A stretch of 57,930 bases of DNA, from contig JAGVBB010000002.1 of assembly GCA_020059915.1 (NCBI GenBank), forward strand, positions 128,129-186,058, written 5' to 3'. Below, piece by piece: positions 4,171-54,302 of the stretch (position 1 is the stretch's first letter; each line of letters opens with the position of its first letter). The position numbers and the translations under genes were made by a program. Below the pieces are notes generated by a model, which was not told the origin of the DNA, did not search any database, and worked only from the letters and a program-made list of their open reading frames with translations. The stretch is from Minisyncoccota bacterium. Lineage in GTDB: Bacteria > Patescibacteriota > Minisyncoccia > UBA6257 > GWB1-50-10.

Positions 4171-4749
4171 TTATGATTTCAACCATACTACCCGCATTGC
4201 CTTTTCTTCAATTTCCTTTTTTTTGATTGTTAATTTTTCTTCCGCGGTTGCCTCTCTGTTTAATTCCTTAAGAAGTGTGTGTGGCTTTTCGGTGAGTGAA
4301 GGAATTATTATCCCTGGTTCGAGTTGCCGTGTGAGTTTTGCAATTTTTGTAATTTCGAGAAAAGGAGATCCTCCCGCGGGAACTATTGCAATATCATTGT
4401 CAGTGAAGGCAGAGATTGTCTTTGGGTCAAGTTCATTATATAAATGTCCGAGCACTACCAAAGAAATGTCATCAAAGAGTATTTGGTACGCGGTATTTTC
4501 ACATTTTGCTTTTTCATTCCATCCCGTCGAATATCCATGGATACGAACTCCACCAATTTCGTACTCTCCCTGATTTTCAATCCACACAGGAGCGTCCTCT
4601 CCCTCCAGTGGTTCAGAAAATGTCGGTTTTACTGTATTGATAACTACCTGAGCGCCCCTAAAAGATCTTTGATTTTCTGGATCTATAAGGATGGTGTAGT
4701 CTCCTGACTGTATTTTGAAGTAATTTCCTCCTTGATATGTAATAACCAT
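4171..4749 (-). CDS. MBL-fold metallo-hydrolase-like protein (Lactamase_B_3 type, degenerate metal ligands)
   Basis: MVITYQGGNYFKIQ...ILIDP, GEYEIGGV, IAIVPAGG, LEPGIIIPS pattern. Confidence 0.75.
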   Translation of the reverse strand: MVITYQGGNYFKIQSGDYTILIDPENQRSFRGAQVVINTVKPTFSEPLEGEDAPVWIENQGEYEIGGVRIHGYSTGWNEKAKCENTAYQILFDDISLVVLGHLYNELDPKTISAFTDNDIAIVPAGGSPFLEITKIAKLTRQLEPGIIIPSLTEKPHTLLKELNREATAEEKLTIKKKEIEEKAMRVVWLKS

Positions 4750-4851
4750 ATGATATCAACATTGATTATAGAAAATATTTAGCAATTAGGGAATAGCCAT
4801 TTTTTGTTTAACCGTTGCATTTTTTGTTAAAACAACGTATTCTAATGCGGT

Positions 4852-8974: not shown

Positions 8975-9000
8975 ATATGTTGTTTGTAATGCCCGTTCTG

Positions 9001-9073
9001 TGGGCCAGGAAGGACTCGAACCTTCGGTCGCCGAGGTATAAGCTCGGTGCTTTAGCCACTAAGCTACTGGCCC
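9001..9073 (-). tRNA. tRNA-Ile(UAU)
   Basis: GGGCCAG...CTGGCCC-A acceptor stem, anticodon stem CCGAG/CTCGG, loop CTTATAC (anticodon TAT), GGTTCGAGTCC T-arm. Confidence 0.93.
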
Positions 9074-11825: not shown

Positions 11826-12860
11826 TTATTCTTCAGTTTCCACTACCACCCCCTTCTTCTCTGCCATCTCAGTTGTTTTCTTTTCTATTGTTTTAAGTAA
11901 TTTTTTATCTGCTTTTAATTTTTCTCTGATATTATCGAATCCAACTCCCATTTTTTCATTTTCAAAACTATAACTTGCGCCATTCTTTTTTACTACTTCA
12001 TATTTTATAGCGGTGTTAAGTACGTCTGCTTCATATGAAATTCCTTCTCCATACATAATATCAAATTCCGCAACACGAAATGGTGGAGCAACCTTATTTT
12101 TTACCACCTTTGCTTTTGTTCTATTTCCAACAACCGACTCCCCCTTCTTTATTTGTGCAATTCTACGAATATCGATTCGAATAGATGCATAGAATTTCAA
12201 TGCCATTCCTCCGGGTGTTGTTTCTGGGTTTCCAAATACCAATCCTATTTTCATTCTTGTTTGGTTTATAAAAATAACAACAGTATTTGATTTTGCGGCT
12301 ATTGCGGTAAGTTTTCGAAGCGCCTGAGACATGAGGCGAGCTTGGAGTCCCATATGCGAATCTCCCATTTCACCTTCGATTTCTGCACGTGGTGTGAGTG
12401 CTGCAACTGAGTCAACAACTACCACATCAATAATATTCGAGCGAACCAAACTTTCTAATATATTTAGTGCCTCCTCACCATTATCTGGTTGTGATATTAA
12501 TAACTCTTTTATTTTTACTCCAATTTTTGAAGCATATCCTGGATCAAGTGCGTGTTCTGCATCAATATATGCAGCTTTTCCTCCAGCTCGTTGTGCCTCT
12601 GCAACTACATGAAGGGCGAGCGTTGTTTTTCCCGAACTCTCTGGTCCAAATATTTCAATAACTCTTCCTTTGGGGAAACCACCAACACCAAGGGCGAGAT
12701 CTAATGAAAAAGATCCAGTTGATATTGCTTCAACTTTTTTAATTACTCCTGTTTCGCCGAGTGTCATAATAGACCCCTCTCCAAAACGTGATTGGAGCGC
12801 CTCCATTAATGACTCTATATCTTTTGCTCCACTTTCTTTCTGTTGTTTTTTTGCTGACAT
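11826..12860 (-). CDS. recA: Recombinase A
   Basis: [43 protein letters not shown]. Confidence 0.99.
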
Positions 12861-49041: not shown

Positions 49042-49509
49042 TTATGAAAACAATAGAATAGTAAATACGAGAATACCAAACCCTACAGCAAGTAGATTGT
49101 AGGAATTTTCAAAGAATTTTCCTTCAGAACCCTTTTGTCCAGATTTTTTCCATTCTTTCGGATAAATAGATTCTTTTTCTTCATTAAAAAACGCCTCTTC
49201 GTAAAATCCCAATGCGTTTTCAATTTTTGCCAGTATTTTTCTTTGATTGTTAAACCCTTTCTCTAAATCGGCAAAATAATATTTCCTTATGACAAGCCAA
49301 ACAATCAGAACAAAAATTGCTAATGCAATTTTTTGGATTTTATCAAAACATATATTTGATTGAAAAATATATCCAGACGAAGCAAGAAGTAGCCCGAGTA
49401 TCCAAAGAGATACAGTTTGCACTCTCTCACGAATAGTATGCACAGAAGCGTTGCGCTCTTGGAGCGCCTGTATCAAAATATCAAGTTTTTGTTGATCATT
49501 CATTTTCAT
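49042..49509 (-). CDS. 3-TM membrane protein, putative CBASS effector
   Basis: Starts 3 nt downstream of the CD-NTase stop; two TMs, a soluble loop and a C-terminal TM. Confidence 0.7.
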   Translation of the reverse strand: MKMNDQQKLDILIQALQERNASVHTIRERVQTVSLWILGLLLASSGYIFQSNICFDKIQKIALAIFVLIVWLVIRKYYFADLEKGFNNQRKILAKIENALGFYEEAFFNEEKESIYPKEWKKSGQKGSEGKFFENSYNLLAVGFGILVFTILLFS

Positions 49510-49512
49510 ATT

Positions 49513-50391
49513 TTAGTTAATCAACGCATAAACTTTTGCAACAAAATCTTTCGCTTGATCGTGGGTTCTTTTGGTTTGTCCCTTAAATAACCACATTAGA
49601 TCGCTAACCTCAGCATATTCATTTGCCTTTGCGGTATTACCCATATCATTCCAAATTTCTACAATAACCGCATTTACAGCGTCTTTATGGTTATTTTTAT
49701 TGAAATGATGATGGGGAATATTCCACACCAGACACTCAACAAAGAATGAAGGCATGGCATCTGTGGCAAGCTGACCAGAATCAATCATGTGATTTCGGCA
49801 ATTTTTAATCATACGAACGACCTTTTTATACACCTCATTTGTGTCGCTATGCTTTTGCACACCGTTTTCGTGGTGTTGTTTCGGAAAACTCCTTACATCA
49901 TCGCCAGAATCAGAAAGTAATTTTATACCTTCGGCCTCAACCGTTGTGGCAGTTCTGAATCTTTTAAAAACGAAACATGGGATTACATCGGTGTTTACGC
50001 GATAGGTATTAGCGTTTATCCTTATGCACTTATTTTTTCTTTCAACATATCCTGGAAATTTGCTCTTGAGCAAATTCTCAACCTCATTTTTGAATTGAAC
50101 AAATGTATAAGAGCTATCACTGTAGATACTTTTATGGAGCGCCTTATCTTGAGGAGTGAGGTTAGAAATTTCTGGAAAGAACGCGTCTTTATAGCAAACC
50201 ACAATATCAACATCACTATCTTGCCTAACATTTGTTTTGTTTTTATATGACCCCTGCAAAAATACCTCCACTTTTGAGCCAAAATGGTCTTCAAGGATTT
50301 TTCTTATTGAGGCAACAGTTGCAACACACTTGGCATTTTCAGTGTCGGTTAGAGGTCTTGCCCAATTTTGGAGTTGTTGTTCCGTAATCAT
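49513..50391 (-). CDS. CD-NTase (cGAS/DncV-like nucleotidyltransferase, CdnE-like), CBASS cyclase
   Basis: LQGSYKNKTNVRQDSDVDIVV, DVIPC, EGI, FPKQHHENGVQK...YKKVVRMIKN, PSFFVECLVWN. Confidence 0.9.
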   Translation of the reverse strand: MITEQQLQNWARPLTDTENAKCVATVASIRKILEDHFGSKVEVFLQGSYKNKTNVRQDSDVDIVVCYKDAFFPEISNLTPQDKALHKSIYSDSSYTFVQFKNEVENLLKSKFPGYVERKNKCIRINANTYRVNTDVIPCFVFKRFRTATTVEAEGIKLLSDSGDDVRSFPKQHHENGVQKHSDTNEVYKKVVRMIKNCRNHMIDSGQLATDAMPSFFVECLVWNIPHHHFNKNNHKDAVNAVIVEIWNDMGNTAKANEYAEVSDLMWLFKGQTKRTHDQAKDFVAKVYALIN

Positions 50392-50405
50392 AGAAAGTTG
50401 TGAAT

Positions 50406-50442
50406 ATTTAGATTTGTGTATTTTCTAAATCTTTTCTATAAT
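50406..50442. promoter_or_regulatory. Divergent promoter with palindrome ATTTAGA-N11-TCTAAAT
   Basis: Inverted repeat 50406-50430 over the -35 region; TATAAT at 50437-50442, 6 nt before ATG 50449. Confidence 0.55.
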
Positions 50443-50448
50443 ACTACT

Positions 50449-52170
50449 ATGGCAAAAATAAAGCAACAAGAAGTCTTCGACTTCGTCCGAAAATATACCT
50501 CCAAAAATAAATTTGCCCCCTCTTTAGAGGAGATAAAGAATCACTTTAGGTTTGCTTCTGTTTCTACCGCTCACTATCACATTAAAAAACTAGAAGACGC
50601 TGGTCTTTTAAGGAAGCAAGAGAATAAAGCAAGGGCTATAAATCTTGATATAGAACAAAAAATGATCCAGGTTCCAATATTGGGAGCAATTGCTGCGGGT
50701 AGCCCGATTGAAGCAATAGAAGATCGGCAAGAGACTATTGCAATCGCGCAATCTGCAATTTCAGGATTCAGGTCAAATGATGTTTATGCTCTTCGTGTAC
50801 AAGGGCAAAGTATGATCGAAGAAGGGATTGACGATGGTGACATTGTCATCATTTTAAATCAACATAGTCCAAATAATGGAGATAAGGTTGTAGCCCTCAT
50901 AAATAACGAAGAGGTAACTTTGAAAAAGTTCTTTAGAGAAAAAGATAAAATAAGACTGCAACCAGCAAACTCAACAATGAACCCGATCTTTGTAGAACCT
51001 GATGAGCTAACGATTCAAGGAAAAGTTTTGATGACCGTAAAAACTGCCGAAAGAATCAAACCAACTCCACTAATTAAAAACCCGCTACCACGAAAAAGTC
51101 TCTCGTTTGGAGAACCAAATACACTTTTTGAGCTTGAGAAGCCCCCAAAATTTCCATCGACACGATTTCAAGGAAGCAAAACAAAACTTCTAAATCAAAT
51201 TTGGGAGCATATCAAGGATATAAAGTTTGATTCAGCGGTAGACTTGTTTGGAGGAACGGGTTCCGTTGGTTATATGCTCAAAAGTAAGGGTAAGCAGGTT
51301 TTTTATAACGACTTTTTGAAAAGTAATTATTTAGCAGGACTTGCTCTTATTGAAAATTCAAAAGAAACACTGGATGAAAATGATATAGATTTCATCTTAT
51401 CAGTACACAGTAATATTGATTATCCTGATTTTATTCAGAAAACATTTGAAGATACATACTTTACCGATCAAGAAAATAAATGGCTAGATATTGTTTCAAC
51501 AAACATTAGGCAGATGAAAAACAAGTACAAGCAAGCACTTGCTTATTATGCTTTGTTCCAGTCTTGCATTATCAAACGACCATACAATTTATTTCACAGA
51601 AAGAATCTTTATGTTCGTTTTGCAAATGTTGAGAGAAGTTTTGGAAATAAAATCACATGGGATAAGCCATTCGAGGAGCATTTTATAAATTTTGTAAAAG
51701 AAGCAAACGAAGCTGTCTTTGACAATAACCAAAAAAATAAGGCACTGAACTATGATGCAATGTTTTTGGATACGAAAGCCGATCTTGTATACATAGACAC
51801 TCCTTATATTTCAAGCAAGGGTTCTGCCGTTGATTACTTAGATTTTTACCATTTTCTTGAGGGTATAAGTGACTATACGAATTGGTACAGTAAAGTTGAT
51901 TATAAAAGTAAGCATCGGAAATTTAAGTCCGAAAAATCAATTTGGGCAGATAAAAAAAGAATTGCACAAGCTTTTGATGATCTTTTTAGAAAATATAAAG
52001 ATTCGATATTAGTCGTTTCCTATAGATCTGATGGCATACCCACTCCAGAAGAATTGATAAAAATTCTCAAAAAATACAAAAAGGACGTAAAGGAAGTTTT
52101 TAGAAGCGATTATAAATACGCTTTGAGTAAAAATGGTGAATCAAAAGAAATACTTATTGTCGCAAAATAA
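50449..52170 (+). CDS. LexA repressor fused to a Dam-family N6-adenine DNA methyltransferase
   Basis: wHTH (PSLEEI..HF..SVSTAHYH..KLE..G.L), Ala-Gly site IAAGSP, Ser (GQSM) and Lys (TLKK), then RFQGSK, DLFGGTGSV (motif I) and YIDTPY (motif IV variant) in one ORF. Confidence 0.9.
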   Translation: MAKIKQQEVFDFVRKYTSKNKFAPSLEEIKNHFRFASVSTAHYHIKKLEDAGLLRKQENKARAINLDIEQKMIQVPILGAIAAGSPIEAIEDRQETIAIAQSAISGFRSNDVYALRVQGQSMIEEGIDDGDIVIILNQHSPNNGDKVVALINNEEVTLKKFFREKDKIRLQPANSTMNPIFVEPDELTIQGKVLMTVKTAERIKPTPLIKNPLPRKSLSFGEPNTLFELEKPPKFPSTRFQGSKTKLLNQIWEHIKDIKFDSAVDLFGGTGSVGYMLKSKGKQVFYNDFLKSNYLAGLALIENSKETLDENDIDFILSVHSNIDYPDFIQKTFEDTYFTDQENKWLDIVSTNIRQMKNKYKQALAYYALFQSCIIKRPYNLFHRKNLYVRFANVERSFGNKITWDKPFEEHFINFVKEANEAVFDNNQKNKALNYDAMFLDTKADLVYIDTPYISSKGSAVDYLDFYHFLEGISDYTNWYSKVDYKSKHRKFKSEKSIWADKKRIAQAFDDLFRKYKDSILVVSYRSDGIPTPEELIKILKKYKKDVKEVFRSDYKYALSKNGESKEILIVAK

Positions 52171-52173
52171 GCA

Positions 52174-52917
52174 CTACTTTTTCTTCCATTCGAAATATTC
52201 CGTGATGTTATGATATGGCTGTTCTTTCCCCATATCCTTGGCAATTTTTAGTTGCAAGAAGTTTCTCCAATAGTCCTCAAAGACTTTTTCTCCGTGTTTT
52301 GCAAACACGCCAGTTCCGTTTCGTAATATCTCAATATCAGAAGATGAACCAATATTTGCGGTGTTGCCACTTCCTGGCCTATCAGCGGAAAGTTTATATT
52401 TTTCCTGAACAATTATTTCAATATCTTTAATAACTGGTTTTATTTCATCGATTTTTGTTAGGGGAACAATTTCTCCGTCTTTGTCTTCCTCTCTTGTATA
52501 AATAAAACCAAGAACTAAATGTTCTGAATATTCGTGATAAGGGAACATAATGTTCTTTGTTGGGTTTCTCAAATATCCAGTGTACGATCCGAGAGTAAAT
52601 CCAGCGACACGATCCTTAGTTTTTCTGTAAGTACTTTTAATATCAAGGGCGATTTTTTCTCCCGTTGGCAAAACTAGGGTAAGGTCTGGATAAACAGTTT
52701 GTCGATCAGATTGTATAACTTTGATTTTGTACTTCTCTCCAATATCTAAAATAATCGGTGTTGTTACAAGCTCAAATACTTTAGAAATAAGTTTAGTGTC
52801 ACTATTGATCGTATAAATACGATTTTGAGAATCAATGACACCTTTAATATCCCACCCTAGTCCGATAAGAGCGATTTCTTCTTCAAGTATTTTCTTTAGA
52901 TCAAGTTTTTTGGTCAT
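52174..52917 (-). CDS. EcoRV-family type II restriction endonuclease
   Basis: SDTKLISKVFE, YPDLTL, IALDIKSTY (PD..DxK), FTLGSY, recognition loop GSGNTANIGS. Confidence 0.9.
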   Translation of the reverse strand: MTKKLDLKKILEEEIALIGLGWDIKGVIDSQNRIYTINSDTKLISKVFELVTTPIILDIGEKYKIKVIQSDRQTVYPDLTLVLPTGEKIALDIKSTYRKTKDRVAGFTLGSYTGYLRNPTKNIMFPYHEYSEHLVLGFIYTREEDKDGEIVPLTKIDEIKPVIKDIEIIVQEKYKLSADRPGSGNTANIGSSSDIEILRNGTGVFAKHGEKVFEDYWRNFLQLKIAKDMGKEQPYHNITEYFEWKKK

Positions 52918-52919
52918 AA

Positions 52920-53141
52920 TTATTTAACAAAAAAGTCTAAAGACTTTTTATAAAGTTTTGCAAATTCTTTCAGTTGTAGAACATCAAATCGTCTTTGTCC
53001 CGATTCAATCTTTGATACATACGACTGAGTTCTGCCGAGTTTTTCAGCAACTTCAACCTGCCCAAGACCAACCTCAATACGCGCTTGTTTTAAGCGTTCA
53101 ACAATTTTTTTGTGATCATCTTGATAAATTGCTCTTGGCAT
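52920..53141 (-). CDS. XRE-family HTH regulator (C-protein-like controller)
   Basis: RLKQARIEVGLGQVEVAEKLGRTQSYVSKIESGQR, directly upstream of the endonuclease. Confidence 0.85.
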   Translation of the reverse strand: MPRAIYQDDHKKIVERLKQARIEVGLGQVEVAEKLGRTQSYVSKIESGQRRFDVLQLKEFAKLYKKSLDFFVK

Positions 53142-53358
53142 ATGTGTATATCATAATATTCCATTGTGTATTATTCCAAATTGCCATATAATGTATTTAT
53201 GAAGCGGCGGAAGTAAAACCAAAAAATTTCCTTTCCATATTTGTCCGGCTCCCCCCACGCCCCCGCCGAAGAAAAAGGAAAGGTAAGGAAATTTTTTTGG
53301 TTTGGCTAGCGACCGAAGGGAGCACGAGGTGCATTAGTCGAATGCATCAGGATTTTTT

Positions 53359-53426: not shown

Positions 53427-53516
53427 TGGCGGAGGGGGAGGGATTTGAACCCTCGAGGGGTTTTCACCCCTGCACGATTTCGAGTCGTGTGCCTTCGACC
53501 ACTCAGCCACCCCTCC
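53427..53516 (-). tRNA. tRNA-Ser(CGA)
   Basis: GGAGGGG...CCCCTCC-GCCA, anticodon loop CTCGAAA, long variable arm. Confidence 0.95.
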
Positions 53517-53520
53517 TGTG

Positions 53521-53592
53521 TGCCCTCGGAGAGAATCGAACTCCCATCTTCGCCTTAGGACGGCACTGTTCTATCCGTTGAACTACAAGGGC
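53521..53592 (-). tRNA. tRNA-Arg(CCU)
   Basis: GCCCTTG...CGAGGGC-A, D-loop CGGATA, anticodon loop GTCCTAA, GTTCGATT T-loop. Confidence 0.9.
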
Positions 53593-53661
53593 TTCTGTCT
53601 ATTTATAGATTAATCTCATGAGAGAGTAAAGATTTGTATTTTTTTATACCTAGGGTATTAT

Positions 53662-53982
53662 GTGAATATGTTTGATCGATTCACCTTTGATCGGGACAAA
53701 CTAAATAAGGATGACAAGAAGGAAGTCTATAAACGGCTTGAAAAGACGGAGGCGGATCTTGGGCGGGAATTAGAAACCGATGAAACACCAGACATGATTG
53801 CGCTTGAACTGGAGTGTGCTGATGGGGGAGAAAAGAAACATTGGTTTATGAAAACAAAAGAACTTCCCCTCAATGATGGATATGTGAAACTCGCAGATAT
53901 GCTTGAGGCAACCGCAAAGTTTCCTGATGTTTCCCTTACTGAGGCGGTAAAAAAACTAAAAACAGAAAAGAAAGAAAAATAA
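53662..53982 (+). CDS. Hypothetical protein
   Basis: 106-aa charged ORF between the tRNA pairs; start GTG 53662 or ATG 53668. Confidence 0.6.
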   Translation: MNMFDRFTFDRDKLNKDDKKEVYKRLEKTEADLGRELETDETPDMIALELECADGGEKKHWFMKTKELPLNDGYVKLADMLEATAKFPDVSLTEAVKKLKTEKKEK

Positions 53983-53987
53983 TATAA

Positions 53988-54061
53988 GGGCGATTAGCTC
54001 AGCTGGTTAGAGCGTTACATTGACATTGTAAAGGTCACAGGTTCGAGTCCTGTATCGCCCA
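53988..54061 (+). tRNA. tRNA-Val(GAC)
   Basis: GGGCGAT...ATCGCCC-A, anticodon stem TTACA/TGTAA, loop TTGACAT. Confidence 0.95.
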
Positions 54062-54099
54062 CAAAAATTCCAGTAGATCTGGGATTTTGTTTTAACATT

Positions 54100-54170
54100 G
54101 GGCCTATAGTATAGCGGTAGAACGCCTCCATGGCATGGAGGAAGTCGGGGTTCGACTCCCCGTAGGTCCA
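54100..54170 (+). tRNA. tRNA-Ala(GGC)
   Basis: GGGCCTA/TAGGTCC with G3:U70, anticodon stem CCTCC/GGAGG, loop ATGGCAT. Confidence 0.93.
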
Positions 54171-54302
54171 CAAAAACAAGGAGTGTCTTCGCGACTATGT
54201 TTTTGTAGGATGTCGCATACAAGTGCGACGCCACAAAGAAAATCAGAGCGTCTTCGCGACTATGCACTTGGTTAAATTTACTATTTTTTCTATCATTTAA
54301 TT

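Follow-up and report, generated by a model that had tools for sequence, protein, structure and literature searches.

A LexA-methylase fusion, probably a damage-responsive autorepressor, in a mobile EcoRV-like restriction-modification cassette of Patescibacteria

In restriction-modification (R-M) systems the methylase must not fall behind the nuclease, and the known solutions are controller (C) proteins, as the EcoRV system itself has, antisense RNAs, and methylases with a small regulatory helix-turn-helix (HTH). In the SsoII, Ecl18kI, EcoRII and ScrFI-type methylases a regulatory DNA-binding domain and the methylase share one chain, with feedback on R-M transcription, as indicated by titles on self-repressing N-terminal-HTH methylases in the reference list of PMC3874152. 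Here we analyse a stretch of 57,930 nucleotides (nt) from a Minisyncoccota bacterium (GCA_020059915.1, contig JAGVBB010000002.1, positions 128,129 to 186,058), hereafter the window, in which a Dam-class adenine methylase is joined in frame to a complete LexA. Likened by architecture and not by sequence comparison, this fusion can be regarded as an analogue, not a member, of the SsoII-type self-regulating methylases; in contrast to theirs, the regulator here is an entire LexA, whose self-cleaving protease domain would provide an off-switch sensitive to damage. It resembles LexA (E. coli; T. maritima, 3k2z; Patescibacteria) in the winged helix, the Ala-Gly bond, the Ser/Lys dyad and the S24 fold, and by sequence also in a putative operator in its own promoter, but it has a 338-residue C-terminal DNA methylase, belongs to a mobile R-M cassette and shows no detectable regulon beyond itself here. 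The cassette is like the EcoRV system in its EcoRV-family nuclease, in the small HTH gene that immediately precedes the nuclease gene and in its Dam-class adenine methylase, whereas this methylase comes from a ~355-amino-acid (aa) DTPY branch of the D12 family and carries LexA. We regard it as probable, with real room for doubt, that the methylase of this mobile EcoRV-like type II cassette is made as one polypeptide with a complete LexA that acts as a damage-responsive autorepressor.

The gene and its parts are the following, with positions counted from the first letter of the window.

50449 to 52170, plus strand: LexA-methylase fusion gene, a single uninterrupted frame from the ATG at 50449 to the stop at 52170, 573 aa.
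50461 to 50637, plus strand: LexA winged-helix DNA-binding domain, residues 5-63 (Pfam PF01726 LexA_DNA_bind, 48.0 bits, cut-off 23.7).
50674 to 51027, plus strand: S24 self-cleaving and dimerisation domain, residues 76-193 (Pfam PF00717 Peptidase_S24, 106.7 bits, above cut-off).
50695 to 50700, plus strand: codons of Ala83-Gly84, the LexA-type self-cleavage bond (IAAGSP), read from the translation.
50809 to 50811 and 50923 to 50925, plus strand: Ser121 (GQSM) and Lys159 (TLKK), the dyad of the S24 domain, read from the translation.
51040 to 51153, plus strand: Pro-rich flexible linker, residues ~198-235, 8 prolines, low model confidence.
51154 to 52167, plus strand: Dam-class (D12, alpha-type) N6-adenine DNA methylase (Pfam PF02086 MethyltransfD12, residues 240-495, 64.2 bits, cut-off 22).
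51241 to 51261, plus strand: S-adenosylmethionine motif I, DLFGGTG, residues 265-271, read from the translation.
51796 to 51807, plus strand: methylase motif IV, DTPY, residues 450-453, read from the translation.

A preliminary description of this DNA, made from the sequence alone, had claimed an intact LexA in frame with a Dam-type methylase, retaining the winged HTH, the scissile bond, the Ser/Lys dyad, a Pro-rich linker and a full methylase. All of these were found where it had placed them, and the Pfam domains all scored above their cut-offs. The NCBIfam model TIGR00498 (lexA) matched the fusion with 169 bits against a cut-off of 110.95, and the PADLOC model MTase_II with 255.5 bits. In the AlphaFold2 model (mean predicted local distance difference test score, pLDDT, 77.7) the LexA and methylase domains were confident and the linker was of low confidence, with pLDDT of 52-58 over residues 201-230. 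By Foldseek, the front of the model resembled the solved LexA structures 3k2z, 3jso and 8trg, the last being the full-length LexA on the RecA filament, on which the model superposes, and the back resembled DpnM (2dpm, template modelling score 0.53 on the target). A search of PDB sequences with the fusion matched only relatives of LexA, UmuD and lambda cI. Structurally, then, the fusion is a LexA and, with a caveat for its DTPY motif, also a D12 methylase.

Such a frame could also result from a stop lost, or a frameshift introduced, between two adjacent genes during sequencing or assembly, and split versions do exist: in locus L016 a 199-aa LexA is followed 1 nt on by a separate C5 methylase. 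The chance of an artefact here is nevertheless negligible. With the whole protein as query, 39 clusters (P0002-P0040, 98-54% identity, 566-573 aa) from several data sources of a large protein collection gave the same continuous frame with all three domains, and the fusion was found on five further public genome contigs (L017-L021). Moreover, a 2196-nt contig from an independent wastewater run spans 50300-51793, including the LexA-methylase junction, with indels only upstream of the ATG. The length of the linker is conserved among the homologues, while its sequence is poorly conserved in both alignments (A1 and A2).

Alignment of the fusions speaks to whether the protease part is still of use. 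Residues G84, S121, K159 and D450-T-P-Y453 were invariant in 36/36 aligned fusions; in a wider alignment, where identity falls to ~50%, G84, S121 and K159 were conserved in all 139 fusions and A83 in 138 of them, and the positions around them were free to vary, with at least six different residues at position 85 and at least six at position 120. By these alignments, the cleavage site and the Ser/Lys dyad of the fused LexA are under strong purifying selection. It can be argued that the LexA part is a dimerising, DNA-binding autoregulator only, which has lost the damage response and works like the N-terminal HTH of the SsoII type, since an HTH and a dimerisation surface suffice for autoregulation and cleavage is a prediction. 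The same methylase family also occurs as 422-447-aa proteins with an N-terminal MerR-type HTH (PF13411, PF00376; P0059, P0069, P0079, P0092-P0095 and P0116), a second kind of regulator-methylase fusion, which fits the theme of methylases carrying their own regulator. We consider this explanation unlikely, because a nearly invariant cleavage apparatus in proteins so diverged is hard to account for without selection for cleavage.

The promoter of the fusion is consistent with repression by its own product. The elements read from the sequence are listed below; the fusion mRNA would probably be leaderless.

50414 to 50419, plus strand: probable -35 hexamer, TTGTGT, with a 17-nt spacer to the -10 box and the same layout in relatives.
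50421 to 50438, plus strand: probable LexA operator, the direct repeat TTTTCTA-N4-TTTTCTA of period 11, which fills the spacer and overlaps the -10 box.
50437 to 50442, plus strand: -10 box, TATAAT, 6 nt before the ATG.

When the best 7-mer direct repeat was chosen without bias among periods of 10-12, period 11 was selected in 29 of 34 lexA-type promoters. Stand-alone Patescibacteria lexA genes have GTTC-N7-GTTC-type repeats, also of period 11, between a TTGACA-like -35 and the -10, a layout common to the fused genes, but the repeat word of the fusion is TTTCTA and not of the GTTCGG type. A direct-repeat LexA box in Patescibacteria appears, as far as can be told, to be published already: PMC7739468 cites Sanchez-Osuna, Barbe and Erill (2017) among the cases of LexA evolving direct-repeat recognition. 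The recognition helix of the fusion is ASVSTAHYHIKKL, and over 34 loci, which are related and non-independent so that the counts overstate the support, the repeat word tracked position 43 of this helix (H-x-H) as follows.

Position 43 Phe or Tyr, 12 loci: TTCTA in 11, the exception being L059.
Position 43 Glu, Gln or Asp, 20 loci: TTCTA in 0, TTCG-type in at least 15.
Position 43 His, 2 loci: one TTCTA, one TTCGA.

Both helix types occur in several clades of the tree of LexA modules presented below. The comparison thus gives good evidence for the direct repeat as the LexA operator and for a fused LexA that would still bind DNA at its own promoter.

Other elements lie in the same short region. 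A palindromic operator, AATATTTAGA / TCTAAATCTT (50403-50412, 50424-50433), was considered and dropped, as other fusions share the direct repeat without the palindrome. These 10-nt arms form an inverted repeat, 90% complementary, that spans the -35 region; L021 retains an inverted repeat at the same place with both arms changed. A further element marks where the cassette begins on the left.

50399 to 50407, plus strand: degenerate DnaA-box-like 9-mer, TGTGAATAT, with 2 mismatches against the consensus of the relatives, TGTGGATAA.

The 9-mer TGTGGATAA, which we take to be the DnaA box consensus, or its complement TTATCCACA, was found within 140 nt upstream in 19 of 36 lexA or LexA-methylase loci (L007-L021, L045-L064 and the window), where base composition predicts 0.056; these were 15 of the 25 fused genes and 4 of the 11 stand-alone ones. 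Genome-wide the 9-mer has 17 copies, 6 of them intergenic, and it is no general promoter element here. Such an element could link lexA or methylase expression to replication status.

The preliminary description had placed the fusion in an SOS-coupled R-M feedback loop, noting that recA is in the window. The gene is indeed there, and a second LexA-like gene is found elsewhere in the genome (686 kb in 7 contigs, a size typical of bacteria of the candidate phyla radiation, CPR; the source names of close homologues are Parcubacteria or Patescibacteria).

11826 to 12860, minus strand: recA, the presumed co-protease in trans (Pfam RecA, 438.6 bits).
Genome G000, contig C2, locus L002, 1474 to 2202, minus strand: second, divergent LexA-like gene, 218-242 aa, with the Ala-Gly, Ser and Lys present.

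This raises the alternative that the fusion is the general SOS repressor of the cell, controlling recA, uvr and polymerase genes, with the methylase as a passenger. No other gene of the genome matches LexA as well as the fusion (TIGR00498, 169 bits; the second gene, with 93.3, stays below the cut-off), and the LexA module of the fusion is 48-57% identical to stand-alone Patescibacteria LexAs, about as close as to other fusions, with which they interleave in the tree. The distribution of operators points the other way. A single exact copy of TTTCTA-N5-TTTCTA is present in the 686 kb of the genome, at 50422-50438, where it overlaps the -10 box of the fusion. Allowing up to one mismatch raises the count to 19, which is chance level, as 10 shuffles gave 11-21 sites. 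No fusion-type operator was found at recA, which starts 4 nt after the preceding gene, so that with a single exact operator no SOS repair-gene regulon emerges. Within the window, sites with up to two mismatches number 29 against 19.1 +/- 4.4, and 2 of 100 shuffles were as high; a wider regulon for the fusion was tried and received no support, the relaxed sites being at chance level. The genome has one copy of the canonical Patescibacteria box, TTCGG-N6-TTCGG. Besides, the fusion gene lies on a cassette present in other flanks, stand-alone lexA genes of a phylum-wide sample stand beside uvrB or Y-family polymerase genes while the fused ones stand beside nucleases, and eight genomes hold both forms. 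A role as the cell's SOS repressor is therefore very improbable.

The second LexA-like gene is vertically conserved in the family, with strong orthologues (E < 1e-35) in 12 of 60 relatives. It has a different upstream motif, which is GTCCACAGTGTCAAG within the genus, while other genera show palindromes of the TTACGG...CCGTAA kind. A search with the fusion as query did not find the fused gene in G001 and G002, two genomes of the same genus. Since its operator is unique and its cassette mobile, the fusion looks like a private autorepressor on a mobile cassette and not like a global SOS repressor. Of the loop proposed in the preliminary description, the complete LexA, the operator on its own -10, recA and the R-M context stand, whereas the regulator appears to be private and not the SOS repressor of the cell. 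As a separate observation, a one-mismatch operator copy, TTGCTA-N5-TTTCTA (4769-4785, minus strand), overlaps a TATAAT 20 nt upstream of a metallo-beta-lactamase-fold gene (4171-4749) that heads a gene run ending in gyrA; with sites at chance level, this may be a coincidence.

The genes around the fusion define an R-M cassette with the following elements.

52174 to 52917, minus strand: EcoRV-family restriction endonuclease, 247 aa, convergent with the fusion (Pfam PF09233, 240 bits; PADLOC REase_II, 153.6 bits).
52920 to 53141, minus strand: HTH_3 protein, 73 aa, candidate C protein (Pfam HTH_3, 47.2 bits).
53150 to 53179, minus strand: promoter-like site for the C-nuclease operon, TTGGAA-18-TATGAT, a consensus match only.

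The nuclease gene lies tail to tail with the fusion, 3 nt from the methylase stop. The HTH_3 gene is co-oriented with it and directly upstream, only 2 nt separating its stop from the start of the nuclease gene; its 73-aa product has 97-99% identical copies in L017 and L018 and a weak match to PADLOC Control_protein (20.7 bits), and no C-box was identified in a repeat search of the region. No terminator was found between the methylase and nuclease genes (52170-52174), and the only terminator-like hairpins lie ~300 nt inside the opposite gene (52461-52476, plus strand; 51915-51932, minus strand). The convergent transcripts are expected to overlap, because the genes end 3 nt apart without a terminator between them.

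By blastn, homology with L017 covers 50394-53192 at 91% nucleotide identity (91-93% across relatives overall), homology with L018 reaches 53303, which corresponds to the end of the L018 contig, and L021 has only the methylase and nuclease genes in common. The flanks differ: L017 has MscL there, L021 has a TIR-domain protein, and L019 and L020 have other genes again. As the homology is bounded at 50394-53192 and the flanks differ, the unit is, judging from these alignments, a mobile cassette of ~2.8 kb composed of the LexA-methylase, the convergent EcoRV-like nuclease and the small C-type regulator. Just outside its right edge, a hairpin-like element of 89 nt (53215-53303; 22-nt arms, 86% complementary, 45 nt apart) matches both ends of the L018 contig in opposite orientations. 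The surroundings on both sides are these.

49042 to 49509, minus strand: 155-aa membrane protein, which forms a minimal pair with the cyclase, of the kind seen in cyclic-oligonucleotide-based antiphage signalling systems (CBASS).
49513 to 50391, minus strand: CBASS-type cyclase, divergent from the fusion gene (PADLOC Cyclase, 308 bits).
53427 to 54171: four tRNA genes, on the other side of the cassette.

The cassette sits in a defence island beside this CBASS-like pair. The start codons of the cyclase and the fusion are separated by 57 bp (50392-50448), in which a possible minus-strand cyclase promoter, TTGCTT-17-TATTAT, was read by eye, the consensus promoter scan giving no flag there; its -10 (50438-50443) lies over the fusion -10 and adjoins the operator. 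Control by the fusion might thus extend to CBASS here. Elsewhere in the window, a predicted tRNA-Ile with anticodon TAT (9000-9073, minus strand) adjoins tRNA-Val; this tRNA is uncommon in bacteria, where AUA is mostly read by a modified CAT anticodon.

The preliminary description had also remarked that motif IV reads DTPY instead of DPPY. The motif was confirmed, but it is not peculiar to this gene: it was invariant in 23/23 aligned members of the methylase family, 7 of them unfused to LexA, as well as in the 36 aligned fusions, and DLFGGTG was also invariant in both alignments. Very many stand-alone methylases of ~355 aa, from archaea and from unrelated phyla, share 60-73% identity with the methylase part. 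An EcoRV-like nuclease adjoins this family at 13 of the 17 loci that were examined across phyla; it was not found at L019, L023, L029 and L032, two of which are cut at the gene. On this comparative basis, it is very unlikely that DTPY signals decay and very likely that the methylase is active, because the sole methylase partner of an intact nuclease must be active. The literature search found no paper on, nor characterised enzyme of, the DTPY methylases.

A survey of domain architectures, suggested with the preliminary description, was carried out, and it showed that the fusion is widespread and that LexA is joined to three classes of methylase. Among the 60 relatives, a search with only the LexA part brought up frames of 486-544 aa without a match to this methylase, and all nine such long frames were methylase fusions, seven of LexA and S24 with N6_N4 (PF01555) and two of LexA and S24 with C5 (PF00145); TaqI-like nucleases adjoin four of the nine. 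With residues 1-205 as query against proteins of 315-1003 aa, 1673 clusters were matched at E <= 0.001, and all 120 of those listed carry PF02086 or PF01555. In the phylum-wide sample the LexA module was matched in 227 of 401 genomes (E <= 1e-20; the tally includes one unpublished genome, G214, on which no other result depends), with 245 matches; among the 150 matches listed, 25 were in frames of at least 440 aa, and the eight genomes mentioned above had both a long and a short copy. The 10 long frames fetched were all methylase fusions (6 N6_N4, 3 D12, 1 C5), with neighbours of the MvaI/BcnI, TaqI (two loci), BsaWI and endonuclease-VII-like families, and 8 of the 10 loci were convergent with the neighbour. 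Ten stand-alone lexA loci of the same sample adjoin uvrB (2), a Y-family polymerase (2), a resolvase-like nuclease and a GIY-YIG gene, and there was no methylase among the 12 neighbours scanned.

In a quick maximum-likelihood tree of 61 LexA modules, with rows picked by similarity to the query and with support from the Shimodaira-Hasegawa-like approximate likelihood ratio test only, fused and stand-alone forms interleave, with at least 11 changes between fused and stand-alone and 13 changes of methylase class. Joining and splitting therefore took place repeatedly. By domain content, methylases of the D12, N6_N4 and C5 classes all carry this LexA module across Patescibacteria, a widespread design and no one-off.

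From DNA binding through RecA-dependent cleavage, derepression and activity of the cleaved methylase to the effect on the nuclease, we infer the following course of events. The LexA part would dimerise and bind the direct-repeat operator on its own -10 box, and the methylase would in this way cap its own synthesis, the level of repressor being the level of methylase. DNA damage, including that caused by its own nuclease when methylation falls short, would lead to RecA filaments and to self-cleavage at Ala83-Gly84; the DNA-binding head would part from the S24-methylase body, the promoter would open and more methylase would be made. With convergent genes and no terminator, stronger transcription of the methylase may also damp nuclease expression, and the net outcome would amount to "restriction alleviation" in response to damage. 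A naive host would see an early burst of methylase from the unrepressed promoter, while the candidate C protein would delay the nuclease.

Cleavage could also have the opposite effect, if the new ends are recognised by proteases and the methylase is destabilised or inactivated; under heavy damage or phage infection methylation would then drop and leave the nuclease to kill the cell, as a switch for abortive infection or addiction. In E. coli the two LexA fragments are broken down once cleavage has occurred, the cassette lies in a defence island beside a CBASS-like pair, and FtsH and HtrA-type proteases are encoded in the window. However, the same cut would relieve repression, so that new protein would be made, and a whole S24 domain and the linker stand between the cleavage site and the methylase domain. 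No degradation signal was found, although no search aimed at one was made; we hold such a switch to be very unlikely.

Several observations weigh against the damage-responsive autorepressor that we favour. Besides the non-independence of the covariation loci, L059 is of the Phe type and has GTTCGG repeats in place of TTCTA. The strict consensus promoter scan did not flag the fusion promoter, whose -35 matches at only 3 of 6 positions, and the general repeat search did not list the 7-nt direct repeat, which was found by purpose-written scripts. Two RNA-library runs (X16, X17) have contigs on the fusion gene, which prove neither transcription nor its strand or start, and any one sequencing run held at most 0.27 of the sampled words. 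The site GATATC is mildly depleted genome-wide (201 observed against 270 expected, ratio 0.74, rank 5 of 64 palindromes), which is suggestive only of avoidance. The selective logic is not obvious either, as raising the methylase during phage-induced damage would weaken defence. Finally, in L010 and L056 the next gene follows on the strand of the methylase; damage would therefore induce both genes, and one physiology may not fit all loci.

Resetting of immunity by damage-triggered cleavage of a repressor or subunit has precedents in CapH/CapP of CBASS and in the ClpXP restriction alleviation of type I enzymes. Those cases involve different proteins and targets, whereas here sensor, repressor and methylase are one chain in a type II system. 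In the literature searched, which did not include the text of the key 2017 paper on the SOS response of Patescibacteria, no description of a LexA-methylase fusion was found, and in the part of PMC3874152 available LexA is mentioned only for toxin-antitoxin systems. The design is thus common and apparently undescribed. A wider proposal can be put forward only tentatively, as one that may well not hold: that type II R-M control in Patescibacteria includes a large undescribed class, the LexA-methylase fusions (at least 1673 clusters, three methylase classes, many nuclease families), with RecA-damage-responsive restriction alleviation and a DnaA-box-like tie to replication.

If the damage-responsive reading is true, the level of the methylase and, via convergent transcription, that of the nuclease would respond to damage sensed by RecA, giving a built-in restriction alleviation of type II, the counterpart of that of type I. 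A RecA-cleavable LexA-methylase would then be a different solution to the problem of keeping the methylase ahead, one that senses actual damage, including self-restriction, and answers it with more protection. The hypothesis is easily testable in E. coli or in vitro, and the covariation of operator and helix offers a natural series in which the change of LexA DNA specificity can be studied. CPR bacteria are mostly without CRISPR and lean on restriction systems; with the design so abundant among them, it may be a main regulatory layer of CPR immunity.

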